Assembly (NCBI RefSeq): GCF_964355755.1
Contig: NC_092673.1
Span: 26,347,648-26,411,647, forward strand
DNA from: Antedon mediterranea
Taxonomy: Eukaryota > Animalia > Echinodermata
Length of the DNA: 64,000 bases
Reading direction: 5' to 3'
Shown here piece by piece: positions 16,712 to 64,000 of this stretch. Made by a program: the position numbers and the translations under genes. Positions within the stretch are counted from its first letter, which is position 1. Each line of letters begins with the position of its first letter. The notes beneath the pieces were generated by a model, which was given only the letters and a program-made list of their open reading frames with translations, had not been told where the DNA came from and did not search any database.

Positions 16712-16739
16712 TTATTGGAGATGCTGTGCAACTCAAAGT

Positions 16740-20541: not shown

Positions 20542-20571
20542 AACTTCAGTGTAAACCAATACAAAAATAAG
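20542..20571 (+). other. 30-nt non-coding exon 2 of the ROCO gene
   Basis: ttttag|aacttcagtgtaaaccaatacaaaaataag|gtaagt; identical exon at 47050-47079. Confidence 0.7.
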
Positions 20572-24600: not shown

Positions 24601-27600
24601 TGTACTATTGATCTTTTAGAGCAGTGTTGCAGAATGCTAGGCCAGGGAGATAGGAAAGGTGGCTCATTATAGAGGAATTTTTGAGGAAAGCGTACAGTAA
24701 TCTATAAATTGTAGTCTCTAGCAGAAAGCCTGTAATATACTTTAGATTGAGTGCAGTATACAGTCTATCAATTCTTTTTATTTTACAGTAATTTTATTCA
24801 TTGGAAAGTTTGAAAAGAAATGATCAGGATTGTAAATGTCATGTTATACTGTAAAAAAAATGCAAAATATAGTATAAAACATGTAAAAGAAAGGGAAAAA
24901 TAACCCTCGTTAATTAGATTTGCTTGAAAATCATGGCTTTTCGTGATCTGGGAGGATGGGATACCTTGTCATTTTTTTAGAAAATGTATAAGTTTAATTA
25001 TTATCTAGTATATCTACTATTGTTTTTTCAGACTGCTGAAATGAAGTTCCATGATTTGAAAGCTGATTTTAGTAAATACTATAAAGGTAACAAATACCTG
25101 TGGTTACGGTTTGTATTGTTTGATCAGTTAGCTTTAGAGGATACCTGTAAAGATAATGAGGCTATTGATCTACTCAATGCACTACAAGAGGAAGGTGTTA
25201 TTACTCATACTGAAGTTCAGCTTCTTCTCGAGATTGCCATATTGACCAAATTGAAGGAGGTTGTAGATATTGTACTTCAGTATATCATGGAGTGTATGGA
25301 AGATAACAATGTACAAAATAGAGGTGAAAACAAATTATCATCTTACAGAGGAAAATTGTTTAAAGCGTTGAGACAAGTTGACCCAGATGCATTTAATGAA
25401 ATTATTGCCTGCTATGACCTGAACGTTTTTAATTTTCAAAATATTTGGGACGTAGTTTTTAAACTTGAAATCAAAGGACAGTTGGCAGATGAACCAGATA
25501 AAATATCCAAATTTGCACGCTGCCTTGGACAACGTGCAAAAAACATATTGCTAGATAGAGGTATGTATAAGACGTTTTTTTGTTGGTTGGTACAGTAATA
25601 ATTCTAAATTACAAAGCAAATAATATAAATTTTTGTTTTTATATTATGTTTTACAGTTGAAGAATTCATAAGACCAGAGGGTATGTTTTATACTTAACAA
25701 CTAGATCAGATATATCAAAGAAGATGGTGCATCATAAATACGTTGGAGAAAAATGATATATAGTTGTTGATATTTCAATGTTGCATAATATAGAATAGGA
25801 AAAACTTCAAATTTAATTTTAAAAAAATAAAAAGTTATTAATTGGAGGTTGAGGGTTCAAACTTGCAACACAGGGGATAGCATAGTGCTGGATTTAAAAA
25901 TATCAAATGAACCATTGCTTGTCATTGAAATTACTAAAACATCAGAAATAACTGCTTTAAAACAAACCTCTCACAAGTGGAAAACCTCCTGCATGAAGAT
26001 ATTTCTCAAACCTAAGAATGTCCTCGTATGAAAGAGTACAATACTAGTTTTTATTTTTTTCTTGATGGAATTGGTCCAACCAAAAAAGAAATTGAATAAT
26101 GAGTAAATTGATTCAAAATAAGTAGATTTAAACCACAAAATCAGTAAGTATCTTTCATGCTAAAAGCAGTACAAAGCAATGAGAAAAATATAAACACTGT
26201 ATTTTTATTTTTTATTTTTTTACAGTTAAACCTGGAACATCAAAAGAATTCAAGAGACAAACTAGTCCAGAGGGTATGTTTTATTTGTTATCGTGACAAG
26301 TGTAATGCTAATCACTTACCGAAAAACCTTTATAGAACTCCTGTGGGCTTCTTTTTTATATGGGCTTCTTTTAGAGATGGGTTTCTTTTAGAGATGTGTT
26401 TCTTTTCAAGATTACTTTTACAGTACATACTAAACTAAATTTTTGTGAATTGCAACTACAATAGGACTTTTGAGACATTTGAAACATCATTATAATCCAC
26501 AATGACACTCGAAAATGTCCCTGTAAGAGAGAGTAAGCAATAACAGTTTTTTTTTCTTGATGAAATTGGTCCAACAACAACAAAAATAGAATAATAGGTA
26601 AATTGATTCAAAATAAGTAGGTTTAAACCACAAAATTAAAATGGTATTAATCTACTGTCAGTAAGTATCTTTCATGCTAAAAGCCGTACAAAGCAATGAG
26701 TCTACAATGGAAAAATATAAACACTGTATTTTTTTTTTTACAGTTAAACCTGAAACATCAAAAGAATTCAAGAGAAAAACAAGTCCAGAGGGTATGTTTT
26801 ATTTGTTATCATGACAAGTGTAATGCTAATCACTTACCGTAAAACCTTTATAGAACTCCTGTGGGCTTCTTTTAGAGATGGGTTTCTTTTAGAGATGGAT
26901 TTCTTTTCAAAATTACTTTTACAGTACATACTAAACTAAATTTTTGTGAATTGCAACTACAATAGGGCTTTTGAGACATTTGAAACAACATTATAATCCA
27001 CAATGACACTTGAAAATGTCCCTGTAAGAGAGAGTAAGCAATAACAGTTTTTTTTTCTTGATGAAATTGGTCTAACAAAAAAAAAATAGAATAATAGGTA
27101 AATTGATTCAAAATAAGTAGGTTTAAACCACAAAATTAAATTCAATTCAATTTCAATTTCTTATTTCAATTCAATTTCTTTATTGCTGCAAATGCCATCA
27201 AGGATATCTGCTTAAACATACATCATACAAACATATACATATTTACATTTAAAATTGTTGTTATCAAATGGTATTAATCTAGTGCTAAGCAGTACAATTT
27301 TAGTAAAGTCTGCAATGGTAAATATAACCGGAAATTGTATCTTTTTTGTTTTACAGTTAAACCTGGAACATCAAAAGAATTCACAAGATCACCAAGTCCA
27401 AAGGGTATATTTTATTTATTATTGTAACTGAAAATGACAGCCGTAGTTTAAAAATCAATTATTTTAAAAAGAAGATTTAAATACAAATAATATAGTTATT
27501 TCAAAATATATACCATTATATTATAACATTAGAGCTTTATGTATCACAAACATCTTTTCACTGCCAACAATTGTCAGAAATTGAAAGATTATAATAATTA

Positions 27601-33600: not shown

Positions 33601-36600
33601 GGAAGATCATTGATTGTCCTACTTCCCCTTATATACATATGGTCATAACCTTCTAGATCATTCCTTATACTTCTTACTCTATTGGATTACAGTTTCTATA
33701 AATAGTATACTTCTTGAATGTTCCTGATTGTTCTTATATTAATTAATTGTTCTTATATTAACTAGAATGTTCATGTACAGTAGGTACTATGTTACTGTAT
33801 AATGTTAAGGAATGGTAATTTATTACACTCTTCATTTCTTTAGCTCAAAACGCTGGCGAGTAAGAATGGTATTGTTGACGAAAATGAGCAATCAGTCCTG
33901 CTTACCTTCTTGTACGATCTTGGTGAAATTATTTTTATGCCTGACAAAAGAGATCAAGCGGTGTTAAATCCGATGAACTTGGTTGAAACTGTCAAAGCCT
34001 TTGTGACCGTCATTCCATCAGAGATTCCAGTAAGTAGCCTCAAATACTATTATATTGTAAAAAAGTACTACCAGCCAATACAACCCAGTAGGCCTATTGT
34101 TATTTGTTTCTGGAAAATTAACATTACATTCCAAATGCATATAATTTTGATTTATTAATTTAATTGGACATATTTTTTAAGGTTTTAATGTGATTCATTA
34201 GTGTCACACACAAACACCCCTCCCCCTATAGTACAAATAAATACAAAAACACTAATTAATGGTGGATGTTTTTTAGACGGCCATTTACAGAGATGCTTTT
34301 GATAACCTTGACAAGGGCATACTGGAAGAAGACTTGTTGCGAAGAATATGGAAAAAGCGCAAAGTCGATGTTGAAAAGTATTTTAAGTTTCTTGTAGAAC
34401 TGATGATTCAATTTGGTTTCATTTGTAAGATGGAGACAACCAGTAACCAAGACATAGAAAGTGCATCTACAGTAGGATTTTGTTTCTTTATGTATCCACA
34501 TTGATAATAATGTATAAAATTCATTATGGTTTAATAATTGATGAATGTCAATTTTACTGAATTATTTAGGTACACATTCAGAAATACACTTTATATTGAA
34601 TGTGTAATTTGTTTAAAGAAATTTAAATGTCATTTTTTGCAATTTCAGGAATCCAGTGTAAAGCGGTCATTCTTTGTGCCACTGCGCCTTGCTTTCAAGA
34701 CATCAACTGAAGCGAAACCAGTGCCTGATGATTCACAATCTATCAGTGTCTATTACGACTTTAAGGGATATCTGCCAGACGTATTGTTTCCATATACAAT
34801 TATTGAATTCCTCAACAAATTTCAAAAGGAAGGATTTGTCCCACAGCTATCATGTGATCATGCAGAACTTTACCTTGACCAGTACCATCATGTGACTTTA
34901 TCTCTCGTGAAATTCGTAACCAAGAAAGATGAGCGAAAGTTCTTGTTAAAGGTACCAAACAATCTACAGAATCAATAGATAATTACTATTTTGTTTTAAT
35001 TTGATAATTCAAGCATAACCTTTCCATTGAACAGCTGCAAGTTATCAGTAGTATGTATTTGTTGTATTCTAATATTGTTCAATTTATTGATGGTGTAATG
35101 CATTGTTTAATCATAGCAACTATTTTTATTTAAAGATGACTATTAAAAGAAAAGAAGCTCATCACAGTAGTGATAAACATGAACTGTCCCCTGAAGCTTG
35201 CAGAAAGGTATGTATAGTTTGTTTAGAACGCAATATTTGTTTTATATTTTTATAAGATATATTCTCCCTATGAAAAAACTATTTTGTTCAATAGGCTATT
35301 TTATTTTCACATAATTATTCATTTTGACCAAAAAGTGGAAAGTGGTTATAAAAGAAAATATTTACCTAATAAAACCGTAATAAGAAAGAAAAAAAAAGAA
35401 GCCCATAGAAGTTTTTGATTAGATTTATTTAACTGTTTGTTTTATCTTTTTTATAAGCAAAGTAATTATTTTTTGTGGGTTTAAATTAGTTTATTAAAGC
35501 TACAAACATTTGTTTAAACATTTTTTCATCTTTTTGGGAACAATACATCTTTAATGTTTACTAGTATAAAGATCTTTAAAACTAAATACACAATTTAACA
35601 TTTTATTAAATTGTTTTATACTATTAGTACAGTGTTGTTTATTCAGGGGGTTTAGTATTCTTATTAGTAAATAATGTATATTAATTATTCTACTATAAAT
35701 AATAATATCAATAATGCTATGATATTCAGATAGATATTTATTTAATTTGTTTTTTCTTTTTTAATTGTATTGTAAATAAGTTAATGCATATGTTTTAAGA
35801 ACATGTGTTGCTAATTCAATGAAATATTCTGCCTCTGCCATTGCAATTGGCTTCATGTTGTTTGAAATCAACATTCAATTTTTATCTTAGGCTTTGTCAA
35901 CCGTTGAGATGTCATTTGAACATTCTAAAGATGGAGATAGAAGAGGGATTCAATTTTACAGATGCATTCCATGTGATTGTAGTTGTACATCAGAAAAGAA
36001 GCATATTCAAATACTAGAGAATTTCCAGTATGAGATGTTGCCATGCAATGGAGATGGCATGGATGTTACACGTTACAAACGGCTATTTGGAGGTAAGAGT
36101 ATCTATTGAAGTTTGGTGGATGAAATTGTTTGACTAGTAGTAGCCTATACAATTAAATGATCTTTTAAAAATCTAATCATGGCATATTCAATTTAGCTAG
36201 CTTATGCCGTCACCTCCAAAATTTTGAACATTACAGTGCAGTTTAAATGTGTTGCAACTTAGTGAAAAGCAACAGTAATTAATGCAACAATATTTTTTAT
36301 TTTTTTTCTAGATGAAATTAAGCCAACAAAAGTAACAGAAACAGACCAAGGTAAGTCTTAGAAAAAATAAATTAAATTTGACAGTTTTGCTTTTGATATT
36401 CTGCATGATCTGAATGGAATAAACATGTTGAGTACAATATGTATGGGATGGGAATGTGAGTAGAAACTGACTTTTAATATTTTGTCAAGATAAAGATTAA
36501 AAAATGTATTGTCCCCCCAAAACATGAAAATGATTTAAAATAGGCCATTTTGCAGTTTTAATAAAGTTATTCACTTCTGTAAAAAAAAAAACAAAAAAAA

Positions 36601-38244
36601 AATCATTATTTCACTTGTAAAAAGAAATGGTTAATTTCAACCAAAATGCTTTAAATTACATTTCTTTCAGGTAAATCATTTTTTTCCCGATCCAGTTTTT
36701 GGTCAAAGTGAATTATACAATAGCTATTACAAAAATAGCATATTAAAAAAAAAAATTGGAAAAAGAAATGTTGGGGGGGGGGGGGGGAGAGACAATATAT
36801 ATCTTTAAATGGTTAAAAATACCAATTAGTGCATTTTATGTAACAAAAAATACTGTAACTGTAATTATAAAATGTTATCACAAGAATTAAAACAATATTA
36901 CCATTAACAGTCTGCTGATTCTACCTACTACAATTTGTTTTAATGCTTAAACAAACTATTGAAGAATAATAGTCCTTGTTGAAATAAAATAATCTTATTT
37001 CAAATGATAAGCGAACAAAACAAAATCAGTTCTTTTTATTATTGTATGTGAATTAAAGACTATAGTGAGTGAGTAGAGCAACCAACTGGAAAAACATACA
37101 CAGGACTGTTTACATTGCATTGTTGGTTGGGTGATTGAGCAACCCAGATCAATTTTATTTTCTTTTTATACTGACCGATAATTCTACTGTTTACAATCCA
37201 GGATTACACAATTCTGAATAAATTTTTTGGCAGTGTAAAATTGTATAACTGTCAGGCGCAGATTTAGGCAGGGGCTAAACAGGCTTTGGCCCCCTCTAAA
37301 ATTTAACAGCCATGTCTTTTAAAATTAAAGTATAATATTTTTATTTTTCAACTGATTTTATCATTTGAAATAAATCCCCTGCTAGATCCTAGAACATTAT
37401 TAGAATGTTGTATTCTCTTTTTCGTGGATTGTGATAATAGTATTGATGAAAATAGTTGTAATAAACATAATACATTTTACAGTTGACAGCAATCAATTGG
37501 AAGACAAGTTCAACAAGTTAAATGATGATCTAAGTGAAGTCTTTATGAAGTTGAAGAAAAGCTATCTTTTTTTGAGATGTTGTCTCTTTGAGCACATTGA
37601 ATTACAGGTCCTTGCATCTCAAAATAGTATAGCAAAGAGTTTATTCAATGAACTCTATGCTAAACGATATATCAAACCTACTGACGTCAGCCTTTTGCTA
37701 GAGGTTGTGAAACTATCCGAAAATAAGTATGCAGAAGATCTTGTAAAACAGTATATGGAGGACAACAATGTTCAAAATGCTGATGAACAAAAGCTGTCCC
37801 CGTACAGGAAAAGATTGTGCCGGGCATTGACAGAGTTTGACCCAAATGAATTAAACAAAGTTAATGCTTCCTATGAAATGGAATCATTAACCATTTGGGA
37901 TGTAGTTTTTGCACTAGAAAGCAAAAAAAAGTTAGCAGATAAATCACAAAAGGAGAGGTTTGCTGAGCTTCTTGGAGCAATACCAAAGGAAATACTATGT
38001 GCTGGTATGTATATTGTATCTTATTTTAACATGTTTCAAACAATATTTACATGCACAGTATTATATAGATAGATTAACTCTATTACATAGCATCTAAAAT
38101 AGATTCCTGTCATTTGATTGGTCGAATGTGGGTCATGTGATAAAAACATGGGCAAAAAATGTCTTCACCCATTAAAAGGAAAAACATTTGTTTCTTATCT
38201 TGTTTGTATCTGCTAAACTTATTTTTTTGCTTTTAGATTCATGA
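21087..38244 (+). CDS. ROCO-family GTPase with three tandem-DED modules (tDED-tDED-Roc-COR-tDED), ~1343 aa, ~25 coding exons
   Basis: Phase-compatible GT-AG exons: 21087-21684, 21865-21920, 25032-25560, 25657-25680, 26226-26273, 26744-26791, 27357-27404, 27705-27867, 28024-28109, 28738-28859, 29767-29797, 29914-29975, 30091-30115, 30801-30943, 31399-31488, 31584-31763, 31884-32135, 33844-34029, 34277-34471, 34649-34951, 35136-35207, 35891-36092, 36312-36350, 37483-38004, 38237-38244 (alternative last exon at ~39089). Motifs: GQEAVGKT (P-loop), TNGI, WDHGGQ, VVVFDLS, IVGTHK, EVPLKW, FLYDLGEII. Confidence 0.85.
22764..23677. mobile_element. MULE-like MITE with long TIRs
   Basis: GGGTGTCACGAAA...TTTCGTGACACCC with ~90-bp inverted subterminal repeats. 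Flanking direct repeat GGTAGGATAC (8-10-bp TSD depending on the end call). Confidence 0.9.
24038..24200. mobile_element. Harbinger-type MITE
   Basis: TIR AGCTCTGTCTACACTTTCAAAC / GTTTGATAGTGTAGACAGGGCT, flanked by TAA / TTA. Confidence 0.75.
25032..25560 (+). CDS. ROCO exon: tandem DED module 2
   Basis: FHDLKADFS...WLRFVL...AIDLLNALQEEGVI..EVQLLLEI...LSSYRGKLFKAL...NIWDVVFKLE. Confidence 0.8.
26030..27410 (+). repeat. Tandem duplication (~520-610-bp unit) carrying three 48-nt phase-1 microexons
   Basis: Exons VKPGTSKEFKRQTSPE, VKPETSKEFKRKTSPE and VKPGTSKEFTRSPSPK with near-identical flanking introns. Confidence 0.9.
27705..32135 (+). CDS. ROCO exons: Roc GTPase domain and start of COR
   Basis: IPYFITARGKRAKEAYIEALKEG (typical invertebrate pre-Roc helix), IGQEAVGKTCL, FEEDHDVTNGI, IWDHGGQLIYHGIHRIFM, ILIVGTHKG, FAIEN, EVPLKW. 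Confidence 0.9.
29026..29672 (+). mobile_element. Helentron/HINE-like non-autonomous element (partial inverted copy at ~22040-22295)
   Basis: Starts actagatggtac...gtaccatctag (hairpin) and ends cttacgtaaatttatatatagat. The reverse-complement end is seen at 22040. Confidence 0.45.
33844..36092 (+). CDS. ROCO exons: COR domain and Cys-containing C-terminal region
   Basis: LLTFLYDLGEIIFM...VLNPMNLV, GILEEDLLRRIW...LVELMIQFGFIC, FFVPLRL, YLPDVLF, CIPCDC...H...LPC. Confidence 0.85.
37483..38004 (+). CDS. ROCO exon: C-terminal tandem DED module 3 (symmetric phase 1-1)
   Basis: AKSLFNELYAKRYIKPTDVSLLLEVV...LSPYRKRLCRAL...TIWDVVFALE. Confidence 0.8.
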
Positions 38245-47333: not shown

Positions 47334-49407
47334 GGTTCTAGGACACCTACCCCCTAGACAGTTACCCCCCGGATGTTTACCACCCGGACAACTACCCCCT
47401 TAGGACAACTATCCCCCGGACAATTACCCCCCGGAAAACTACCCCCTTAGGATAACTACCCCCCGGACAACTACCCCCTTAGGACAACTACCCCCTTAGG
47501 ACAACTACCCCCCGGTCAACTACCCCACCGGTCAACTACCCCACCGGTCAACTACCCCCCCCCCCCCAATCTAAAAGTAGACAAATATATAGGACCGGTT
47601 TCTGTAAAAATGAAATCATCTGTTTTTAACGGGTGTTTCGAAACTAGAGACCCGAGACCAGAGACCTGACACGACCCAATACGAAAAGGGAGACCTATAT
47701 TTGGGTCTCCCTTTTCGTATATTAGGGTCTCCCTTTTCGTTCTGGTCTCTTTTTTCGTATATTTGGGTCTCCCATTTCGTATATTTGGGTCTCCCTTTTC
47801 GTATATTTGGTCTCCCTTTTCGTATATTTAGGTCTCCCTTTTCGTATATTAGGGTCTCCCTTTTCGTATAGTGGGGTCTCCCTTTTCGTATAGTGGGGTC
47901 TCCCTTTTCGTACGTGGGTCTCCCTTTTCGTATATTTAGGTCTCCCTTTTCGTATTGGGTCTCGGGTCTCATGGTCTCTGGTCTCGGGTCTCTAGTTTCG
48001 AAACACCCGTTTTTAACCGATTATTCTGTTTAACAGCACGCTAGGCCCTAGATTTGCTAGATTTAAAGTACCGTATTTATTGAAAAAAACGGCCTGGGCT
48101 GTTTATTGTTTAGGTGGTTTTTAGGTGGACATTTATTGGAAGAAAGTTGTTTATTCAATGGGAGGGGGTATAATCTAATGGAAATAGACGCCGATTATTC
48201 CATATGATGTGTCATGAGAGTGACATGGTCACCGTTTATTTGAGGGGAATTTATTTAAAGATCGCCGTTTATTCGGTGAGTGAACATTGAGGTCAAATAT
48301 CAAAAGTGATATTATTCTTCAAGTGTACAAAAATACAAATGACAAATTTGAGACAAAAATTAATTCTTTTAAGACCAGTGGTTATCGAAGCATTGTCCTG
48401 ACGCAAAAATTATTATTATTATTAGCGAACCCAGTTTTTACAGTAAATACAGGGAGTACTATATAATACGTTCGACTATCCTATGATCATGTGACAATCT
48501 TCAGTTTATACCAGGCTATATTTATGTTCAATCTTTTACTTTTGTTTACAATAATGAATAGTAATTCGTCAAAGTAAGAATTAAAATATAGTTATTAATT
48601 CCTATTATACGCTGTTGCAGAGGTCAGGTTGTTGAATGGTCTGGGTGTTAGTTGTCCGTCCGGGGGGTAGTTGTTCTAAAGGGATAGTTTTCTGGGTGGT
48701 AGTTGTCCAGGGGTTAGTTGTCCTACGGAGGTAGTTGTCCTAAAAGATTATTTGCCCTCGGAGTATTGTCCAGGTCCAGGAGGTAGTTGTCCTACGGGGA
48801 GTATTGTGTCAGAGGCAGTTGTCCGCGGGGTAATAAGATTATGATAATATAATTTCTAATTTGATACGATTAACCAAAAAGGAATTACAGTGATACGGGT
48901 TACTGGTGGTACTGAGCTATTATTGTTTTTTTTTATCATGTATATAAATATATTGTATAATCCGGGTTGTAAAATGAAAACAAACAAATGAAATGTTGTC
49001 CAGGGGTTAGTTGTCCTACGGAGGTAGTTGTCCTAAAAGATTATTTGCCCTCGGAGTATTGTCCAGGAAGTAGTTGTCCTACGGGGAGTATTGTGTCAGA
49101 GGTAGTTGTCCGCGGGGTAATTACCCGGGGAGGAGGGGGTAATTGTCCGGGGGGTAATTGTCCGGGGGGTAATTGTTCCTAGGGGGTAATTGTCCGGGGG
49201 GTAGTTGTCCAGGGGGTAGTTGTCCTAAGGGGGTAGTTGTCCTAAGGGGGTAGTTGTCCTAAGGGGGTAGTTGTCCGGGGGGTATTTGTCCGGGGGGTAG
49301 TTGTCCTAAAGGGGTAGTTGTCCTAAGGGGGTAGTGGTCCAGGTGGTGGTTGTCCGGGGGGTAGTTTTCCGGGGGGTAAATGTCCAGGGGGTGAATATCC
49401 GGATACG
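47334..49407. mobile_element. Non-autonomous Mutator-like element with inverted ggacaactacccc subterminal arrays
   Basis: 9-bp TSD GGTAAACAT at 47325-47333 and 49408-49416. Arrays at 47340-47560 and 48990-49400. Confidence 0.9.
47631..48008. mobile_element. Nested MULE-like MITE with ~22-bp internal tandem repeats
   Basis: TIR GGGTGTTTCGAAACTAGAGACCCGAGACC / GGTCTCGGGTCTCTAGTTTCGAAACACCC; 9-bp TSD GTTTTTAAC. Confidence 0.92.
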
Positions 49408-50164
49408 GGTAAACATCGGTAACGTACGAACATCGTACGCTAGCTATATACCTAGCCTGACGTTGTATAGTTGCTGCATTAATTGTCTTTCTATTTTTGA
49501 TGTACGAATCACTAAATTTACAATTTGCATGTATTGGTAGGCGGCATAATTATTACACATATTAAAGTACACACAAAACAAAAACTACCATATTACATAA
49601 TAAAATGGTTGAGTCAATTCCACAATGTATCATTTGTTTCACGTTTCGTGAATGGTAGAATATAACAATAAAGATACGGACTAAATAACTCGTGTTACTC
49701 GGTAGCCATATTTATTCAGATCAAGACATAGCGCCCTCAGTCGGGGCACGATACTGTGACATCCTTCCTTTTTTATAATAAGTTACGGTGTGCGCTTTTA
49801 TGAATTTTTTTTTTATATACTTATTTGTTATTTAGTGTGATGAATATATTAAAATATAGTATATCAATTAGTATCAGTGTTACTGTTTAGACTTCATATC
49901 TCTTGTGAGTGAATTATTATAAATACAGTATTATCATGAGTAACTTTAACACGACTTTAACTTCTTTAACATAACATTTAACTTTAACTTCTTTATTGAT
50001 TAACTGTTGTGACCTCCTGCTGTTCAGTTGGTATTGTTGCATTATCATCTGCTGTTTCCATTGGTGTGTAGAGTTGAGTTGTATCAGGGGGTGATTCAGG
50101 TGTTTTCCTAATATGAACTCTGTTTCAACAGGTACCTGTTGGTGTGTCTATCTCATATGATCTT

Positions 50165-52696
50165 TCATCTAGTCTTTTTACAACTACTCCTTTTTTGCCA
50201 TTCTTTTTGACCTAATCGGTGTGGTTTTAGTCTTACCGTATCACCTTCAACCAGTTCTGGTAGGTCATGTGCATGTTTATTGTATTTAGATACTTGTTTC
50301 TCCTTGTTGGCTTTTATCTGTAGCTTGTCCAACTGTAGATACTCTTTTCCTCTGGGTGTTAGTAATGTGTCAGTCATTGGTAACATTGATCTTCTGCGTC
50401 TGTTGAAAAGTCTCTGTGTAGGACTAGTTCCTGTTCCTTGAGTAGGTGTGTTTCGAACTTCAAGTAATGCCATATATGGGTCAGTTTTGCTTTTCTTACA
50501 CTTCATCAACATAGTCTTTGCTGCTTTTACAGCTGCCTCTGCCTTACCATTAGCATTAGGATGATGTGGAGATGAGGTTTGATGTTGGAAATCCCAATTT
50601 GCACTGAAGTTTCTGAACTCTTGACTTGCAAATTGGGGGCCGTTATCCGAAATAACAATTTCAGGAATCCCGTTTCTCGCAAAGTGTTGCTTTACTTTCT
50701 TTATGACTGATTTAGTTGTTGTTTCAGTTAGTTTGTCAACTTCCCAAAATCCACTGTAGTAGTCCACTGTGGTCATGTAATCTACCTTATCAAGTGTGAA
50801 TAGGTCAATTCCAACTTTGTGGTAAGGATATTTGGCTTCAATAGGAATCATAGTTTCCTTTGTCTGTGCCTGTTGATATGTTTGACAAGCATCGCACATT
50901 TGTGTCATTTGTTTTATTTCATATGACATTCCGGGCCAAAAAATACATTCCCTTGCTCTTCTCAGCATACTATCTCCTCCAAGGTGGGAAACATGCAGAC
51001 GTTCCTTTATTGATTTTCGTGATGAGATAGGTACTACTACTCGTTCACCTTTGAATATAAGTCCATCATGCACTGCCAGTTCATCTCTGAATGAATAATA
51101 AGGCATAATCTGCGTTGGTACAAACTGTTTTTCATCTGGCCATCCTTGCATAATTATGGATTTCAGTATTTTTGTAGTTTCATCCATGTTTGTTTCTCTT
51201 TTAAGTTCATCAATTCGCTCTGGGCCAATACAAAGACCACCAACTGCATTTACTTGATCAAATTTGTCTACCTTGTCAGTATTTGGTAGATATGCCCTAG
51301 ATAAAGTGTCAGCGATATACATTTCTTTGCCTCTTGTGTATACGATCTTTGTATCGTACTGTAACAGTCTCATCAGCATGCCTTGCAGTCGCTTTGGAGC
51401 TTTGTGTAAAGGCTTTCTCACAATCATTTCAAGAGGTTTGTGATCACTGTTGATAATAGTCAAACGTCCAAATGTATACTGATGAAATCTCTCCATTGCA
51501 AAAACAATTGCGAGGCACTCCTTCTCTATTTGAGCATATCTTACTTCTGTAGCTGATAGAGATCTGCTAGCGTATGCAATTGGCTTTCCTTCTTGTAATA
51601 AAGCTGCTCCAAGTCCTGTGCTTGAGGCGTCACATTGTACTATTAACTCCTTCTTTGGATCATAATAGACTAGAATAGGAGTTTTAGTGATTAGTTGTTT
51701 CAAATTAAGCATTGCTTTATCTTGGTCATCTGACCAGTGCCACTGACAATCTTGATGAGTCAGTCGACGAAGTGGTTCAACAACAGTTGCTAGCTGAGGT
51801 AGGAACTTTGCTAGGTAATTTGTTAATCCTAGCATTCTACGAACACCTTCAACATCTGTTGGATTATCCATTTTGAGGATTGCTTCTAGCTTTTTCACGT
51901 CAGGTTTTAATCCATTAGCAGTTATGGTATGTCCCATGAAATCAATTGTGTCAGTATGAAATACACTCTTCTCTTTATTTAGTTGTATTCCAGCTTTCTG
52001 ACATTTTTCAAAAAGGTTTCTCAAACTTTTGTCATGTTTTTCAGTTGTATTACCATAGACAAGTATGTCATCTGCTACGCATGCTACTCCTTCTAACCCT
52101 GTCAATGATTCATTTAACTTCCTTTGGAAAATTTCTGAGCTCACTTTCAAACCAAAGGGTAATCTATTCCAGCGAAATCTTCCAAACGGACAGATGAACG
52201 TAGTCAGACGGCTGCTGTTTTCGTCCAATTCACAGTGCCAGTATCCATGTGACAGATCATAATCAACCTTGCTAAATACCTTTGCATTGGCTAGTTCTGG
52301 TAGAATATCCTCCATGGTTGGTAGTGGATATCTCTCACGCTGCAGAACTTCATTCAGCGGTCTCGGATCTACGCATATTCTTAGTTTACCATTTTTTTTG
52401 GTTTGTATAGATATCTGTAAACACCAGTCTGTTGGTTCAGATACTGGCGTTATAACACCTTCTGTTAGTAGTTTGTCTAGTTCCTCTTTTAACTTGGGCT
52501 TCACGGATATAGGTACTCTTCGAGCTGGACATTGCGTTCCTTTTGAGTGCTCGGCAATCTTTATACAAACTTTTCCTGGTAGATGTCCCAGTTTACCATT
52601 AAAAACTGTTTTGTAGTCTTCAAGGATCTTGGATGTTGTCTGTGTGACACTATGTAATTGCTTGAAGTTACTGTAGTTTACCGTGATCAGTTTCAT
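50165..52696 (-). CDS. pol: Gypsy pol: RT, RNase H, integrase
   Basis: LRICVDPRPLN, LPFGL, VADD, CDAS, ELAV...HVSHLG...CDAC, GIDLF, SDNG, AEAAV. Separated from gag/PR by an extra A in an A7 run near 52696-52702. Confidence 0.92.
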   Translation of the reverse strand: MKLITVNYSNFKQLHSVTQTTSKILEDYKTVFNGKLGHLPGKVCIKIAEHSKGTQCPARRVPISVKPKLKEELDKLLTEGVITPVSEPTDWCLQISIQTKKNGKLRICVDPRPLNEVLQRERYPLPTMEDILPELANAKVFSKVDYDLSHGYWHCELDENSSRLTTFICPFGRFRWNRLPFGLKVSSEIFQRKLNESLTGLEGVACVADDILVYGNTTEKHDKSLRNLFEKCQKAGIQLNKEKSVFHTDTIDFMGHTITANGLKPDVKKLEAILKMDNPTDVEGVRRMLGLTNYLAKFLPQLATVVEPLRRLTHQDCQWHWSDDQDKAMLNLKQLITKTPILVYYDPKKELIVQCDASSTGLGAALLQEGKPIAYASRSLSATEVRYAQIEKECLAIVFAMERFHQYTFGRLTIINSDHKPLEMIVRKPLHKAPKRLQGMLMRLLQYDTKIVYTRGKEMYIADTLSRAYLPNTDKVDKFDQVNAVGGLCIGPERIDELKRETNMDETTKILKSIIMQGWPDEKQFVPTQIMPYYSFRDELAVHDGLIFKGERVVVPISSRKSIKERLHVSHLGGDSMLRRARECIFWPGMSYEIKQMTQMCDACQTYQQAQTKETMIPIEAKYPYHKVGIDLFTLDKVDYMTTVDYYSGFWEVDKLTETTTKSVIKKVKQHFARNGIPEIVISDNGPQFASQEFRNFSANWDFQHQTSSPHHPNANGKAEAAVKAAKTMLMKCKKSKTDPYMALLEVRNTPTQGTGTSPTQRLFNRRRRSMLPMTDTLLTPRGKEYLQLDKLQIKANKEKQVSKYNKHAHDLPELVEGDTVRLKPHRLGQKEWQKRSSCKKTR

Positions 52697-53428
52697 TTTT
52701 TTCTGCTGTCTCTCTGCTTAATAGTGGTTGTAAATCTTGTTTGACAATTTGAAAATCAACTGTATATGACTTGTTTGTGGCGTCATTTTTAAGCGTTAGC
52801 ACACATTTTCCTAATGGGATGACTTTGCTCTTGTTATACATTGTTAACTTTGTGTGTGATTGTTCAATTTTGGTACTACCTAGTTCAACATATTTTACTG
52901 GTATCACGTTTACAGTAGCTCCGCTGTCCACTTGGAATTGTATTTTACTTCCATCATTCATGGTCATTTCCGCATATATTGGTCCTGTTGAAACATTGTA
53001 AATTTTGTCTTCAGTTACACTCAATGTACTATCATCTGAATCTTGTGCTTCAACACCATATAGCTTGGGTTTCCGTTTGCATACAATAGCGAAATGGTTC
53101 ATTAATTTGCATTTGTTGCACCGTTTACCCCAGGCAGGGCACATTTCTTTCTTTCTTGGGTGGCTGTTTCTACAATATTTGCATTTAGGCATGTTGCCAG
53201 ACGGTGCTCTGTCACTAGTTTTATGTTTTCCTGATGACTGAGGGGTTTCATGTTTCTGCTTATGTCCACCTATGTTCATCACTTTATGAACTTCTTCTTC
53301 CTCCAATGATTTACCAGAAATCACTTTCATTTGGTTGTATGTGTTTTCATAGCTGTGGCAGATGTCAATACATTTCTTTAAATCTATTTTTCTTTCTTGG
53401 AATAGTCGTTTTCTTACTCTTTCATCAT
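52668..53428 (-). CDS. Gypsy gag C-terminus (two zinc knuckles) and aspartic protease
   Basis: CKYCRNSHPRKKEMC, CNKCKLMNHFAIVC, FQVDSGATVNVI. Confidence 0.88.
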
Positions 53429-54991
53429 CTGGGGCGGATCCAGAGGGGGGGTCCACGGGGTCCGGACCCCCCCTAAATTTTAAGGGTGCCCTTTTTTTAG
53501 AGGTTCAATATTTTATTCGTGTGACATATTTGTGTGTATATTAGTATGCACAGAGTAGGCTACACTAACCCCAAAAATAAAAACAGAAATTTATCACAAT
53601 GAGCGCGATGTTAAGTTACGGCGGCCGATCAAAGAGCATCGTGAGAGGTGGTGACGCGTGATGATCTCTACTTAAACTTCTAAAAATAGATCGTTTCACA
53701 TACTACAGAGGGCGCATGTAAACTTTTTACGATTCAACTCCGCGTACGTTACAATGCGCGCTATGTCATTGACGCGATTATTTGTCCATTGGTAAACACA
53801 TTTTTATGTATTATTATTCTGAAACTAATTGAACTGTAAACATAATTCTTTTGAGTATTTGTTTATTTACATATCATTCTATCAGATCAACTATTTTTTA
53901 TTTCCATTACATCCAACCAAACATGTAAAAAATGTAGTTAAAATATCGTACTATCTAGCGCGTACGACCATACGCGGTAGATTGTTTACTCAAAAATCAT
54001 CGATACACTATTCAACCTTGGTCTTGTAGTTGAGCCTCTCATGACCTGGGATTTGTTTGTCTTCCTACGCCAAGATAATATAGTTCTACAAGCCATGTGC
54101 TTTTTTCTCTGAGAAATATTTATTATAAGTGCAAAAAAATGTTTTTTTCTCGATATGAAGCCTTTATTATTCAAATCTTTTAAAGAAAAATCACACATAC
54201 CATAAAGAAGGTTCATTTATTTCATTTTTGAAACAATATTTGTGAAAATTACGTGAGGCTCAACTACAAAACCACCATTTTGTGATATGATGTCATCGTG
54301 AGCTCACGATTGAATGATTTTGGATTCTGGCTATTTGATTGGTGGACGCGAATTACCCACAGCGGAATGTTTTCTCTCGCGTGTACCAAGAAGTCACGTG
54401 ATCTCTCTGTACTGAACGGTACTACACAAATTTAGAGAAATGGATTTGTACGAATTCCGTTAAATAAACAACTCTATATATTTTATAAACATTTAATAAC
54501 ATATTTTATTGATATTTCCAATGTTGATATATAAAAGAAATTACTATAAAACGTAATTATATGTAATTATTTTAGCGAAAAATGGCGCAATTTGTTTACA
54601 ACGTTCGTGGCTAAAAACGATCATTTTCGGCAATGTTTTAGACCCTATATTTCGAAAACTACAAGTCAGATTTTCGTAATTCTTTCTTTATTGGAATATT
54701 GAAACAAAATACCAACAGATAATGTTTAAATTGGTTGAAAAATAACAACTTTTAATTTTGCATCGTTATCCCTGCTAATAAAGTGTCATTTCCGGCGAAC
54801 TAGAAAGGTGCCATTTATCATGGATTTTGCGTGCGAGGGTGCCATTTCCGGCCATCTAAGTGTGTCCTGTAACAAAATTCGCTTCGCCACAACCCCCACC
54901 ATGGGGGGGGCTGTGGCTCAAATACTCAATATCTGATGTGCCCTTTTTATCGGCGGACCCCCCCTCTCAAAAATGTCTGGATCCGCCCCAG
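53429..54991. mobile_element. Non-autonomous DNA transposon nested in Gypsy gag
   Basis: TIR CTGGGGCGGATCCAG / CTGGATCCGCCCCAG with flanking ATCAT duplication. Removing it restores gag ...LVLGVHDERVRKRLFQE. Confidence 0.9.
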
Positions 54992-55519
54992 ATCATGTAC
55001 TCCCAGTACTAAACGATCTCGAATTAGACTATCTTTCATGCAATCACAGAAATTACAGGTTTTTCTGAGTATTTTCAAAGCATTTATATATGTGTCAATT
55101 GACTCGCCTTTTTCTTGTTTTCGGGAATTGAATTTATATCGTTCAAAAATTTCATTGGTTTCACCAAGAATAAACGTATCCAATTTTTGTATGATTTCCT
55201 CACACGTGTCAGATTCTAGTGGGTCACATCCATTATATATTTGGAGTGCATCAACACCCATGGTAGAGATCAGTAATGATTTCTTAAAATGAGGTGATCG
55301 TGATGGATGATCTAGGTTGCTAGCAATGGTATAATGTGTCCAAAGCTGCTTCCATAATTTCCAATTTTCCTGTTTACCATTTATGTCTAGTTTTACCGGT
55401 TCTGGGGGTTTAACATTGAACATCGGGACAGGCATTTGTATCGTCGGCAGTCCGTTGCCGTTAGCTTCATCCTGCAGGCCATGTGCGTCATTTTGCACGC
55501 CCTCCTCGCCGTCTGCCAT
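54992..55519 (-). CDS. gag: Gypsy gag N-terminus
   Basis: ENWKLWKQLW...ERYKFNSRKQEKGESIDTYI...LIRDRLVLG. Confidence 0.88.
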
Positions 55520-56068
55520 GCTGGCTAGGCTGGTCGTATCTATCTCGTGAGATTTAACAGTAAATATCTTACTTTACTTATCTGTGTTTCAGTGTGCAAT
55601 TCAGACTAATCTTTTCTTGCAATGAGCACCGCTGCCGCCATGTTTCACGTTTCGTGAATGGTAGAATATAACAATAAAGATACGGACTAAATAACTCGTG
55701 TTACTCGGTAGCCATATTTATTCAGATCAAGACATAGCGCCCTCAGTCGGGGCACGATACTGTGACATCATTAAATTTGCAATTTGTGAATATTGCATGT
55801 GTTGGTAGCATAATTATTACACACAAATACACATGTTTCAATAAAAAGAACCCAAATATTTACAACCTAGCAAACTAGCCTGAAGAGTAATTAAAATATA
55901 CTTGTACAGTAATAGCTCAGATAAAAGCATTTATATAGTATCAGCTCAGCATTGTCAGAAATAAATAAGATATTCTCCCCATTTATTTTTGTTTAACTCA
56001 TAAACAATCCTTATTGTATACAATTTAATTAACTGTAATCGCTTAATATAAAACATATTTACATATCA

Positions 56069-56392: not shown

Positions 56393-56429
56393 ATGAGAAT
56401 ATTGAAAAATAAAATAGCTGTTCAATTAT

Positions 56430-57890
56430 TTAATGTTTATTGTAGTGCCGCAGTGGCCATATTATACAGTACACCGGCACCACTTTGTCTACAGAGTCTG
56501 ACGCGGGTCGGTAAAACACTAGACGATGAATCTGCAACGGTCTCATTCTGAGCCGGCAGAACGGGAGTAGGTCGACGAAGCTGGCGAGGAAGCCCAGAGT
56601 CCTAAGCCAGTCGAATACCGTTGGAGCCAAACTCGTGAGCAGACCGGCCAGAGCTGCCTGAGCCGAGACCACTCGCGCTGCAGTTGGGTGAGCCACGCAT
56701 GTGTTCAGATTGATCCGGTCTCCAAGGCATTGCGGGTACTGAGTCGGGAGCAGGCACAACTTGTCTCGATTTATTAGGAAACCTACTCGTTCCGTCGCGT
56801 CGAGAACGAAATCTATGTTGCGCAGCAACTGATCTCTTGACTGGGCTACAACCAACTAATCGTCGAGGTACATGTGTATACGGATACCGTGTCGATGCAG
56901 GAACGCTGCCAGCGCCCGAACGACATGTGTGGAGACCCGTGGGGCTGTCGACAGCCCGAACAGGAGAGCGACGAATTGGTAAATTTGGTTGTTTATGCGG
57001 AAGCGCAGCCACAGCTGATCGGCCTCGAACATGGGTACACGGAAGTACGCATCCTTGAGATCTTGAGGCTTAGGCTCCTCGTCGCAGGTCAAGCAGAATC
57101 GTGGAGAGCGTCTCCATTCTGAATTTGGCCGGTCGGATGTAGCGCTTGTTGAGACTCTTGACATTTACAATCGGTCTCTATCCGCCGGAGGATTTGCGCA
57201 CCAGGAACATCGTAGACTCGTGTCCTGGTGGGGCGTGTAGAGCGTCGACCGGAACAACCGCGCCGTCTAGGAGAGCGCTGCGTATTTCTGGATCGCTCGG
57301 GATCCGAGTGTGGCTTATCGTCCCTGGCACCAGGGTAGCTGTAAATTCGATACGGTAGCCCTCCCGTACGGTTACGCAGACCCAACTACTGTCCGCTTCT
57401 AGAAGTGAGTTCCACGCTCCTTGTATGCGTATTCTACCCCGAGGTAAGTTAGCACCGCAGGTACTACACGATTAACAAAAGTTTGGAGCCCGGGTGCCCC
57501 CGAACCATCGCCATAACCAAAAAAAGACACAAGCGTTTCGTCGTCCTCCATGTAGATGTCCTCGGGTTCTGGTGCTGCGGGAAGAAGGACAGTCGGAGGG
57601 GGTTGCATATATGGCACCGACGGAGGGCCATCCTTGGGCAGTGCTTGTACGGCCGCCACGACCGCCTGTAGAAAGGCGGGAGACAAGTCAAATTGTTGCT
57701 CCGCAGGAGCTTGACTTTGCATATTTTGATACGTACGGCTGTGTAATAATTGGAATCGGCGGTGTAATAACCGGAATCGGCGGCGGAATTTCCGGGACTG
57801 GGGGAAACGGCGGAGTCTCCGCAGGAGACTCGGGCCTAGGCGAGGCAAGTCTTAACGTCTTTCTCGCGTGCTGGAAGCATGGTGACTAAG
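56430..57890 (-). mobile_element. Degenerate DIRS-type retrotransposon fragment (gag-like and RT/RNase H)
   Basis: GC-rich. DLKDAYF, YQFVALLFGLSTAPRV, MYLDD(W), GFLINRDK, LRMRPLQ, split by frameshifts and stops. Confidence 0.8.
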
Positions 57891-58254
57891 CACACGTACA
57901 GCCCACAACAATCGACCAAGGAAAGCCGGCACCGGGTCTTGGCTAGCAATGTTCCCTTAGCACAGTAACAACAGACCGAAATCCCACGGATTACGGCCGA
58001 AACTATAATACTTAGCTTCGTTGGAGATAAAATTAGCGTGAGTAGCGTTGCTTTTATTCTTCTAGCAGTAGCTGCTCACACAACAAACAGATCTTTCGCG
58101 TATAAATCCAATCCAACGGCAAGGCTCTAGGCTCAGTATAGTACAATACAATACTATAGGCTATCCTAATACAATACAATAGGTTCTATTGTTCTCTCTC
58201 TCCAGCTAGTCACGTAATAGACTACCAACACCACTATTGGTTTGTGTAGATATT

Positions 58255-58325: not shown

Positions 58326-59089
58326 CTGAGATTCCTGTAGCATTTATTTTAGTTAAATGAATAAAAAAAAATAGTTCGTCATGCAAGACTGATTAAAGAA
58401 GTCATGTGACACATAGAAGGTGGCAAAATTCTAAGGTGTTGGCACTTTGCATAACAAAAACACCTTGCATTGTAATCAAGTTGAAGTCTTTGGTAGAGCA
58501 GCCTTGTCATGCTAGAAGGTTCATTGATTACTGGCCCTATTTGGAAATTGGACCGTTGCCAATAATATGAATTATATACTTGCGCAGGTAGTTTTTAATA
58601 TACTATAGAATCTGAGTGAAGTTAATAGATTTCCGTAGTCATTTTATTGATGGACTGAGATAAGGCAGTATAAAATAAACTTTGTTTACACCTCCATGGT
58701 TGACTATTATAGTTAACAATACAACAACACCAAAACCTTCCGAAACAGGAAACAATACAAATAATAGTTCCGAGAGGTATTGGTATAGCTTATTTCTTAA
58801 TACTGGGCCTAGCTTGGAGAAAGAATTTAATAGTTCCATAAGATAAGAGAAATTGCTTAAAACAGTTATACACATTTACATAGTTTTAGTAAATTGGAAA
58901 AAAAGTCTCACCCCAAGATTTTGAATTGGTTGAAGTTTGTTGGTATTGCTACTGGATAGAGACTGGGTGACAGAATTTTAAGTGGCAACAGGTCTAGAAA
59001 CGTACTGCTACTATTACCATAAATAGCGTAATTTATTAATGTTTCAGTGTAAAAATGTATACAGATACTATTTGTTATTTTTCAGGAAA

Positions 59090-62000
59090 ATGGCATCTCT
59101 TGAAAGGAATGATGAGTTTGACGACTTGAAGGCTGAACTTGGTAAACACTACAAAGGTGAAAAGTATGATATGTTGAAATTCTGCCTATTGAATATCCTA
59201 CCTCACGGAGATATTAAACAAAACTTTATAGCGAACGATATATTTAATGTACTTGAAAAAAAGGGTGTTATCTCAGCTGATAATGTTTGCTTTCTCCTCG
59301 AGATTTCTAAACTGTCTAATCAAAGGAAAGCTATGGATCTTGTAAGAAACTATATGAAAGATAACAATCTTATAAATTCAGGTACGCAAAAGTTTTCATC
59401 ATACCGAAAAAGATTGTTCAAGGCTTTACAGGAAGTTAGAGAAGATACATTAGATAGGATAATTTCTCGCTATGATCTGAGAGACCTTGCCGATAATTTA
59501 CCAAATATTTGGGCGGTTGTTTGTTATCTGGAAAGAGAGTTACGTTTAGAAGATAAACCTGATAAAATAAAGCGGTTTTCAAAACTTCTTCCGGAACAAG
59601 CAAGAAAAATAATACTTGATGGTAATTACAATGAATTCTGATAATTTATATTGAAGTTTTAATAATAACTGTAATATTGTGGGTCATTAGGCATGTTCAT
59701 ATTAAGATATGATGATCTATTATCATGATACGTTTAGCACGATAAAGAGAAACTGTTCACATAGAAATCATATCACGATCTCTTTTATGGTAATGGTATT
59801 AAGTTACATAATAGCTGAGAGCCAATAATGTTGCGCGCAATACTAACTCTAACGCTGATTGGTTGATTCTATCTTGTGAATTAATTAATCACATTAAACT
59901 AGGTCAGTCATGTTTCTCCTTCATGCTCAACAGATCACATTAAGCTGATTAAGCTGATCACGTTTTTTGATAAATAGGTTCACATAAAATTACATCGTAA
60001 TCAATGGTGAATGTGAACCCATATTGAAAAGGAAAAAATAGGCTTTTTCTTGTAGAAATTTATTATTTCTATAGTTTTAAATAAAAACTTTTACTGTAGC
60101 TTTTAATGATCCAATGAGAATTAATAAATTCCTAGACTTGAAATTGGCCTGGAATATATTCCCCTGTCAGTTTAGCATTTCTCTTGTTTTATTAGATGAG
60201 TCAAAAGATCAAGTAAAGAAACCAAGAAAATAAAAAAAGAGACAATAAATCCTTTATTTTAATTCCAATACTGACCTATATACCAAACAAATTACTTATT
60301 ATTCTCTAGAGTTATTATCTGAAGGCTAATAAAAGCAAAATAATTATTAAGAGTAAACTCTGATCAATTTAATGAAGATAATAACTGAGATTGAAGAAAT
60401 GAAAACTAAAGTTATACTGTTCACAGACAATTTAACAATTAAAAAATGTTGTTATTTTTTATATATACCTATTAATTAAAATTTGATTTATTTGATAGAG
60501 ACAACATTAAAAGACTATGTAAGAGAAATGTTTTTACAGAAAAAATGTTTTGTGAAAACAGATTCTGAGAAATCACCGAAAGAAATGGAACTAATTAAAG
60601 GTACGTAAAGAAGTATTTAATGTAAGATTTGTTGTTAATATTTAGAGTAATGTTTCATTTCATTTATTTGACCCAAAAAAAAGCAACCTAGACCACTATG
60701 ACTCGATGACGGTCAGTAATTCCTTTATACAAAATAAAATAGTTTTAATCTTGTTCATATTTTGCTTTTTATTAATAAAATAATATTTAGTTTACAGAAT
60801 ATAATTATGAATTCTATACATCTACAAATGCACTTTAAGAAGTGTGTGTTTATATTTTTTAAACCTATAATACAGTTGTGCAAATTTTATAGTTTTTGTT
60901 TCTTTTACATTTTAAAATTCTTGTACATTCATTTATGCTGTGTATATCTTAAGCAATAAAGAAACATAAAAGTTGACATGAATCCGGTAAATATATATTA
61001 AATTGCTGCAAACCCATTGTCTGGTTTAATTTAAATTTTTTTTTTCAGGTATTGATGACAGTGAATCCTCAACCTCACATCAACAGCTACCAAGTCGAGA
61101 TACAATGACCGATGAACATGCTGTAGATGAGATATGTAACTCTGTAAGGAGATTTTGCACTTACATGAGATGTGGTGAGAGCTTAAAAACAGACCAGGAT
61201 GTCATAAAGATGATAAGTAGTCTTAATCAGGAAGAAGAAAAATGGAAACATAGGTATAGATGGAAATGGATTCAACTGGAATCATCAGAAGACATTGGTA
61301 GAATGCTAGCTCATGTTTTGATTACTGTAAAAGATGAAAAGTATATGTTATTTAAAATCAGTGAATCATGTACTGATGATGTGGTAAAAGGATTATCTAC
61401 TGAATGTAGTAAATACATGTTTAAATATAGTATTGAAGGTTTTTCTTGGGTTGAGTCTCATATTTATATTTCTACATCATTTTTACTCCACTTTTTGATT
61501 AATGCACCAAGACTTCAATACCTTAATTTAAGTGAAACATATGCTAATATGAATGATATTGTTAGTGTACTATCGCAGAAATGTTTAGTGTTGGCATTAG
61601 ATAATCTCAATATCGGTTTTAATAAACTCAATGATATCACAGGTTCTTCACTCGGCACATTACTGGCTATTTCTCCTAAACTGAAAACACTTGACATGTA
61701 CAACTGCAGTCTGTCAGGTGTTTTCATAGATGCTATGGTGAAGGAATGTGTCAATAGGAACCTAGTGTTGGAATTAAATAATCTTAATATCAGTGGGAAT
61801 ATTCTCAGTAATATCAAAGGTTCTGTACTTGGCACATTACTGGCTATTTCTCCTAAACTGAAAACACTTAAATTGCACTACTGCAATCTATCAGGTGTTA
61901 TCATAGATGCTATGGCCAGGGAATGTGTCAATAGGAACCTAGTGTTGGAATTAGATAATCTTGATATCAGTGAGAATAATCTTGGTGATATCGCAGCTTC

Positions 62001-62844
62001 TTCACTAGGCACATTACTGGCTATTTCTCCTAAACTGAAAACACTTTACATATACAGCTGCAGTCTGTCAGGTGTTATCATAGATGCTATGTTTAGGGAA
62101 TGTGTCAATAGGAACTTAGTGTTGGAATTAGATAATCTTAATATCAGTGTGAATACACTCAGTGATATCACAGGTTCTGTACTTGGCACATTACTGGCTA
62201 TTTCTCCTAAACTGAAAACACTTAACATGCTCTACTGTAATCTGTCAGGTGTTATCATAGATACTATGGTGAAGGAATGTGTCAATAGGAACGTAGTGTT
62301 GGAATTAGATAATCTTGATATCCATGGTAATAATCTCAGTGATATCACAGGTTCTGTACTTGGCACATTACTGGCTATTTCTCCTAAACTGAAAACACTT
62401 AACATGAGCAAATGCCATCTGTCAGGTGTAATCATAGATGCTATCGTGAGGGAATGTGTCAATAGGAACCTAGTGTTGGAATTAAATAATCTTAAGATAA
62501 GTAAGAATGTTCTCATTGATATCACAGGTTCTATACTTGGCACATTACTGGCTATTTCTCCTAAACTGAAAACACTTAAAATGTACAATTGCAGTCTGTC
62601 AGGTGTTATCATAGATGCTATGGTGAGGGAATGTGTCAATAGGAACCTAGTGTTGAAATTAGATCATCTTGAAATCCGCAGGAATAATCTCACTGATATC
62701 ACAGGTTCTTCACTAACCACATTACTGACTATTTCTCCTAAACTGAGAAAGTTTGGTATGCGTAAGTGTAAATTACCTAATGATATAGTGCAGGATATGA
62801 GGCAACACTTTCAGAGTATAAATGGTAAATTTTCCTATCAATAA
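59090..62844 (+). CDS. Tandem-DED + ribonuclease-inhibitor-type LRR protein (NLR-like but lacking NACHT), ~810 aa
   Basis: Exons 59090-59621 (tDED: MLKFCL...IFNVLEKKGVISADNVCFLLEI...SSYRKRLFKAL), 60499(or 60562)-60600 (linker) and 61049-62844 (LRR), all joined in phase 1. Seven 59-aa (177-nt) two-LRR units. Confidence 0.8.
61590..62780 (+). repeat. Intragenic 177-nt tandem repeat (x7) encoding alternating A/B LRRs
   Basis: ctggctatttctcctaaactgaaaacactt recurs every 177 nt (e.g. 61681, 61858). Confidence 0.95.
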
Positions 62845-63364: not shown

Positions 63365-63820
63365 TATACTGTGCATTTTCAGTCAATAGCATATACTTGT
63401 GTTAATTGGGGCAGGGGGTTGTAAATGAAGTACAGTGGTTGTTACTGTGTATTTTCAGTCAATAGCATATACTTGTGTTAATTGGGGTAGAGGGTTGTAA
63501 ATGAAGTACAGTGGTTGTTACTGTGCATTTTCAGTCAATAGCATATACTTGTGTTAGTTGGGGCAGGGGGTTGTAAATGAAGTACAGTGGTTGTTACTGT
63601 GCATTTTCAGTCAGCATATACTTGTGTTAATTGGGGCAGGGGGGTTGTAAATGAAGTACAGTGGTTGTTACTGTGCATTTTCAGTCAATAGCATATACTT
63701 GTGTTAATTGGGGCAGGGGGGTTGTAAATGAAGTACAGTGGTTGTTACTGTGCATTTTCAGTCAATAGCATATACTTGTGTTAATTGGGGCAGGGGAGCA
63801 TTAAATGAAGTACAGTGGTT
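63365..63820 (+). repeat. 76-bp minisatellite, ~6 copies, in the 3' flank of the LRR gene
   Basis: gtaaatgaagtacagtgg recurs at 63421, 63497, 63573, 63647, 63724 and 63801. Confidence 0.95.
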
Positions 63821-64000
63821 ATTAGTATATAAATGTATACAGTATATAAATATGATAATTTATTTTTGTATTAAGTTTTTACAAATAAATACATATTTTA
63901 AATACCATACTCCTTTTTGTAGTGTTTTAAATTATAAATAAATTATAAATAACTAATTTTGGGATTTACTTATTATTTTGTGTCATAGGTGCATTTCGGC

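Follow-up and report, generated by a model that had tools for sequence, protein, structure and literature searches.

Does an array of nearly identical leucine-rich repeats (LRRs) in the genome of the feather star Antedon mediterranea form a recognition surface diversified by selection, and what kind of protein would carry it? A sequence-only reading of 64,000 nucleotides of contig NC_092673.1 (hereafter the window) had described seven near-identical 177-nt units whose xxLxLxx positions differ in nearly every copy, and had attributed this pattern to repeat homogenisation combined with diversifying selection on a ligand-binding surface, as in fungal NLR repeats and lamprey VLR modules. The gene that contains the array has the following features.

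59086–59621, plus strand: exon for a tandem death-fold pair (likely tandem DED), with ATG at 59090, a phase-1 donor, and Pfam and fold matches
60196–60243, plus strand: decayed mini-exon ESKDQVKKPRK, a peptide coded by paralogs, with TAA at 60231–60233 and no donor seen
60499–60600, plus strand: short phase-1 exon, within which the RefSeq model P0001 begins
61049–62844, plus strand: last coding exon, comprising the NACHT-deletion junction, a helical remnant, degenerate LRRs, the homogenised array, a cap and the stop
61051–61150, plus strand: NACHT-deletion junction, where the pre-NACHT linker meets the helix that follows the NACHT in crinoid NLRs
61588–62775, plus strand: LRR array with 14 LRRs, made up of six full 177-nt units plus a seventh cut to 42 codons

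The product of the last exon is 100% identical to XP_071946836.1 of Antedon mediterranea, annotated as "leucine-rich repeat-containing protein 31-like". TRF confirms the tandem array, with a period of 177 nt, 6.6 copies and an 86% match at 61586–62746. However, only six of the seven units described earlier are full (61588–62649; pairwise identity 85–91% in DNA and 71–81% in protein), while the seventh is a partial unit of 42 codons, 73–77% identical to the others, that runs into the cap. All seven A-type and all seven B-type motifs listed earlier are present in the translation. Each unit of 59 residues consists of an A and a B LRR of the ribonuclease-inhibitor (RI)-like kind, and the entire array lies in a 604-codon frame (61030–62844) and, as had been proposed, in a single exon. 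Among the six full units, 46 of 177 columns are variable and one run of 39 nt is without any change. The identity of the array of XP_071946836.1 to the column consensus of its own repeat is 0.86, a measure that stands in for the Psim 0.85 criterion of HIC repeats. Exact contigs from runs X1 and X2 match parts of the array, and these parts are therefore not an assembly echo; contigs of run X2, which shares its sample with X1, leave holes even at 100% likeness. The number of units varies between the gene models of Antedon paralogs.

From the LRR consensus LxxLxLxxN/CxL, 12 exposed positions of the unit were fixed before any counting. These positions hold 24 of the 43 extra amino-acid alleles in the six full units, a clustering with a permutation p of 1.5e-5 against all 59 positions and of 0.002 against the 30 polar positions. 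Non-consensus codons are non-synonymous in 26 of 26 cases at exposed positions, in 2 of 7 at structural positions and in 17 of 21 at the remainder. The hypervariable codons are 8, 10, 11, 13 and 15 together with 36, 38, 39 and 41, at the strand end and loop, as well as helix codons 21 and 51. Thus, the statement that xxLxLxx positions differ in nearly every copy holds for the later positions and the loop, but not for the first two x (codons 5, 6, 33 and 34), which are almost invariant. An AlphaFold model of the last-exon product (pLDDT 86, pTM 0.82) places strands at unit positions 6–8 and 34–36 and helices at ~19–28 and ~44–56, with codons 8 and 36 at strand ends and codons 10–15 and 38–41 in the loop that follows. 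The top fold matches of the LRR model include FBXL2, ribonuclease inhibitor and NLRP LRRs. The predicted structure is an RI-like horseshoe with variable residues at the strand end and the following loop; the terms concave face and rim are read from the LRR pattern, because the model was used for secondary structure only. In four other Antedon paralogs (18 units) the same positions vary (Spearman 0.65, at the protein level only), and the seven most variable positions in those units are all among the 12 exposed positions. Codons 5, 6, 33 and 34 are conserved in the array of XP_071946836.1 but variable in NACHT-bearing relatives. At eight loop positions, which were chosen from XP_071946836.1 itself, identity in its array is 0.19, the lowest among similarly homogeneous genes.

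Estimates of dN/dS were based on the seven units of the window gene only, with a star tree, our own codon-model code (not PAML) and NEB posteriors. Model M2a was favoured over M1a both for seven units (LRT 42.8, omega 8.8 on 20% of sites) and for six (LRT 34.9, omega 12.3). With seven units, codons 11, 13, 21, 36, 38, 39, 41 and 51 had posteriors of at least 0.9. On the predicted solenoid the variable sites fall mainly at the strand end and loop, but two of these eight selected codons, 21 and 51, are inside helices and count against selection on the surface. A fixed-partition test for omega>1 gave p ~1e-7 with a single synonymous rate and p 0.003–0.017 when the patches were given their own synonymous rate. 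The site-wise analysis that the sequence-only reading had called for returns omega well above one, whereas the strictest fixed-partition test, in which exposed sites have a free synonymous rate, is borderline (p 0.007–0.01 with six units, 0.075–0.11 with seven). Synonymous change in the variable patches is ~2–3.6× higher than elsewhere, as expected if homogenisation does not reach them. At the exposed positions, 16 of the 26 alternative codons differ by two or three bases, which can inflate codon models. Neutral simulations, in which exposed sites were neutral under expansion alone, conversion, or mismatch-blocked conversion, were kept if they matched synonymous divergence (9,572 of 13,435 runs). 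None of the 9,572 attained the pN of 0.325 seen in the array, its six codons with at least four residues, or its 24 alleles; the nearest, in one regime, had a pN of 0.317. Site models, exposed-codon counts and simulations support repeat homogenisation together with diversifying selection on a strand and loop surface.

To approach how the repeats are kept alike, a tree was built from 110 units, which represent 18 genes with no more than eight units per gene. Units from five Antedon NACHT-less genes, 24 in all, group together with support 0.85 but do not sort by gene, none of the five being monophyletic; 30 Anneissia units make up a separate clade (support 0.84), and seven other genes are each monophyletic (0.94–1.0). 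The repeats of the five Antedon NACHT-less paralogs are one pool, while NACHT-bearing genes each keep their own. Framework identity is 85–88% between Antedon paralogs and 87–90% within them, and distinct motifs number 21 among the 24 Antedon units for A and 24 of 24 for B. The shared pool fits exchange among paralogs, and recent duplication alone can also homogenise repeats. A PHI-like test on the window units, with nine informative sites, detected no spatial signal of recombination (p 0.92); 17 of 36 pairs of sites were incompatible. Among 50 related proteins with at least three units, isoforms included and with the organism looked up for only some, 23 have an identity of at least 0.85 to their own consensus. 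Giant echinoderm NLRs of 2,200–4,300 aa were also observed (P0035, P0014, P0015 and P0046); in P0035, of Antedon, 33 repeat units were detected, and blocks of them are duplicated at a higher order.

Among the longer homologs of the array, 14 of 21 carry a Pfam NACHT domain, and these are crinoid NLRs. To judge from homology, the array is built of the LRR found in crinoid NLRs, and the hypervariable repeat pattern is common to many of them beyond XP_071946836.1. In the gene itself no Pfam NACHT was found, and tblastn of NLR NACHT regions gave no match in the 64-kb window. The counterpart of the linker in NLR P0016 is STHQQLPSQD, directly before the pre-NACHT helix (z 6.8), and in 8 of 40 NLRs the best linker match sits 91–118 residues before Walker A. 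About 478–540 residues are missing at the junction, as estimated from the 9 of 40 NLRs showing both marks. Because the last exon opens with the linker and passes straight into the post-NACHT helix, the deletion lies inside one exon. The junction motif is present in all 12 NACHT-less proteins examined (six from Antedon, six from Anneissia) and, being common to both genera, places the deletion before their split. XP_071946836.1 therefore belongs to a crinoid subfamily with about 500 NACHT residues deleted inside an exon. The annotated N-termini of this subfamily, which come from automatic gene models and may in some cases be chimeric, are DED pairs in Antedon and TIR, Ig or no annotated domain in Anneissia. 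The gene has C-terminal RI-like LRRs homologous to those of NLRs and lacks NACHT/STAND, and without NACHT it is by definition not an NLR. What the first reading missed is that the array would be the sensor of an NLR-derived gene without NACHT and with a tandem DED exon upstream.

The upstream exon at 59086–59621 matches Pfam DED with an E of 1.3e-7, below the curated cut-off. Its best PDB match is caspase-8, which is weak (E 0.027), and the second death-fold domain aligns with a caspase-8 DED at Z 7.0 and rmsd 2.7 over 74 residues, with PYD tied. A Foldseek search with the DED model (pLDDT only 67) gave no match at E<=0.001, and its top nine rows are caspase-8 DEDs. The death-fold exon, the short exon and the last exon join in phase through GT/AG sites into 809 codons. 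For paralogs P0003 and P0019 the annotation connects DEDs to the same LRR exon, while the models of paralogs P0002 and P0025 have truncated DED exons. A contig of run X8, a run guessed to be RNA, skips a 448-nt GT..AG intron before the last exon, although it may come from a paralog. That the DED and LRR exons are spliced together and yield one protein is our inference: the RefSeq protein model begins downstream of the DED exon, which it omits, and no joint of that exon to exon 60499–60600 is among the contig joints listed. Contigs of runs X5, X6 and X8 carry a version of the DED exon that is ~6–7% different; the exact version of the window is not among them, and such contigs show presence, not absence. 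The short exon was considered as a remnant of the pre-NACHT helix and rejected, with profile scores near or below zero.

Elsewhere in the window, further tandem death-fold exons lie on the plus strand at 9968–10457 (which looks broken), 21084–21611, 25041–25562 and 37509–38000. No NACHT or LRR exon was found behind these four within the window, and they could make up one cluster as alternative or serial exons; a 146-codon frame at 34538–34978 without a Pfam match may also belong to it. At 11830–11859, 30 letters are identical in a contig of run X8 (then GT), where a DED exon like that at 59086 is joined to them; they are either a non-coding leader situated 47 kb upstream or a leader that belongs to a duplicated segment. 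A 76-nt tandem repeat (six copies, 94%) follows the gene at 63367–64000 and is homologous to 10531–10897, which suggests a segmental duplication boundary. A Gypsy-like retroelement occupies 49635–55772 on the minus strand, with gag/pol in several frames and a 132-nt end pair whose 99% identity indicates recent insertion. The region 56400–57900 is GC-rich (52%) and contains RT-like fragments that resemble a DIRS-type element. A long C2H2 zinc-finger exon lies at 2–3553 on the minus strand, and inverted array pairs with 15–16-nt units, likely the ends of foldback or MITE-type elements, lie at 6379–8413, 12378–23681 and 47339–49392.

Alternating near-identical A and B LRRs with variable strand residues and changes in copy number are known from tomato Cf-2/Cf-5, which are extracellular, membrane-anchored plant receptors of unrelated origin. 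The A/B alternation and variable strand residues are shared with the feather-star gene, whereas the extracellular, anchored location is not. Among the closest systems are the crinoid DED-NACHT-LRR NLRs (for example P0017, P0026 and P0016; "uncharacterized" in RefSeq), which have the same 59-residue LRR pair, pre-LRR helix, pre-NACHT linker and death-fold N-termini. In contrast to these, the gene described here has no NACHT, its framework is common across paralogs rather than gene-specific, and its variation is shifted towards the post-strand loop. The comparison with fungal NLR repeats is apt. In the available passages on fungal HIC NLRs (Podospora HNWD/het-d and het-e; ANK and TPR types), near-identical repeats likewise carry few hypervariable, selected binding-face positions and are exchanged within and between genes (PMC4986451, PMC13449251). 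Unlike them, the crinoid gene has LRR pairs, lacks the NACHT and has a death-fold pair as effector. Podospora HNWD-type repeats are quoted at 80–100% identity in the part of PMC13449251 consulted, and the 71–81% protein identity of the array is at or below this range. The same part of that survey, which included LRR types, states that HIC NLRs also occur in animals (PMC13449251). Of the HIC marks, the array has repeat conservation, selection on few surface positions and concerted evolution, the last resting on unit-tree clades in which conversion and recent duplication are not separated, and it lacks the central NACHT/NB-ARC. Since the array works like fungal HIC NLRs, its evolutionary signature is of a kind already known. 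The ROCO-LRR and NB-ARC-TPR candidates of Ectocarpus also combine intracellular repeats with diversifying selection and shuffling, but the abstract of PMC3341825 describes one exon per repeat, whereas here all repeats share a single exon and an NTPase is absent. Zebrafish NLR-B30.2 genes are an animal NLR family shaped by conversion and positive selection, with LRRs that are not very variable and selection on B30.2, as far as excerpts of PMC4852459 go; here the LRRs vary.

The main rival to a signalling sensor is an LRR-only or signalling-dead product, subject to the same selection and homogenisation, that would serve as decoy or ligand sink or would regulate full NLRs. We consider this rather unlikely. 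The RefSeq model without the DED exon, the TAA in the mini-exon between the DED and LRR exons, the truncated DED exons in P0002 and P0025 and the loss of NACHT, the usual oligomeriser, all speak for it; the intact DED frame with phase-compatible GT/AG sites over 809 codons and the DED-LRR annotations of P0003 and P0019 speak against it. A further reading dispenses with positive selection and supposes recent expansion with merely unconstrained exposed sites, or patches that mechanically escape conversion. It draws on the non-significant result of the strictest test with seven units, on the raised synonymous rate in the patches and on the greater variability of exposed positions in any LRR protein, and relaxed selection is the norm between paralogous repeats in the passages seen of PMC5120217. 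However, at the exposed sites not one of the 26 alternative codons is synonymous, no simulation reached the observed values even with mismatch-blocked conversion, and the equally exposed codons 5, 6, 33 and 34 are conserved here and variable in NACHT-bearing relatives, all of which makes a reading without selection improbable.

In lampreys, VLRs are either secreted or held by a GPI anchor, and somatic assembly from cassettes gives them arrays of 24-residue modules. They resemble the feather-star gene in the variable residues on the LRR strand face, yet none of these other traits was seen in it, and the proposed lamprey analogy breaks down. By hydropathy only, no signal peptide or membrane anchor was found (N-terminal maximum −0.65; overall maximum 1.41, inside a repeat helix). 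Nor does this look like an incomplete germline gene with LRR cassettes, as the frame is complete in the assembly and no other copy of the unit lies within the 64-kb window. RSS-like motifs, as generally known, are absent after position 58000, and variable columns show no bias to AID-type WRC/GYW hot spots (7 of 19, against 16 of 47 other C/G columns). A VLR-like locus rearranged in somatic cells is thus extremely unlikely, even though the repeats are modular with variable faces and somatic shuffling is hypothesised for brown algal LRR genes in the abstract of PMC3341825. It is also very unlikely that non-pathogen recognition, such as allorecognition or symbiont control, drives the diversity. 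Fungal HIC NLRs with the same signature do act in allorecognition, according to portions of PMC4986451 and PMC13449251. The drive towards diversity in fungal het genes is the model for this reading. Against it, adult feather stars are, to our knowledge, not known to fuse.

On balance, we lean towards an NLR-derived, NACHT-less LRR sensor with repeats kept alike by crossover and conversion, exposed residues under positive selection and an upstream death-fold pair for signalling. Because the exposed residues are much more diverse than neutral drift would produce, the gene probably codes for an intracellular immune sensor that is rapidly re-tuned. In the proposed mechanism, unequal crossover and conversion likely keep the repeat framework uniform, the trading of repeat segments, both inside one paralog and from one to another, would spread and recombine the variable patches in the germline, and positive selection likely favours new residues on the binding surface. 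Since NACHT is absent, clustering would have to come from the ligand itself, which would be multivalent, cytosolic and probably microbial; the DED pairs thus brought together could then seed a FADD/caspase-8-type assembly with no need for an ATPase step. We infer these functional steps (ligand, clustering, signalling) throughout.

In the literature searched, which was mostly open-access main text, we found no description of crinoid NLR repeats or of a NACHT-less DED-LRR family, although Fig. 8c of PMC13449251 may show an echinoderm example; the passages seen of PMC10236652 (coral genomes) and PMC8913654 (sea cucumber NLRs) do not describe the pattern. Animal NLRs are usually viewed as fairly fixed-pattern sensors that need NACHT to oligomerise. 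More broadly, and only tentatively, feather stars could have converted a single NLR into a NACHT-free family of intracellular variable-LRR receptors, with a one-exon pool of interchangeable units traded among paralogs, swappable effectors (DED, TIR), a combinatorial germline repertoire in each animal and ATPase-free signalling; that such a repertoire is generated somatically is barely credible. The 59-residue unit, with its fixed frame and about nine variable positions, is a natural binder scaffold. A long-kept NACHT-less branch with the strongest surface diversification would, if the reading is true, test whether LRRs alone can drive death-fold signalling, and a deuterostome family with fungal-style self-shuffling LRR sensors would be a route to a variable intracellular repertoire in an invertebrate.
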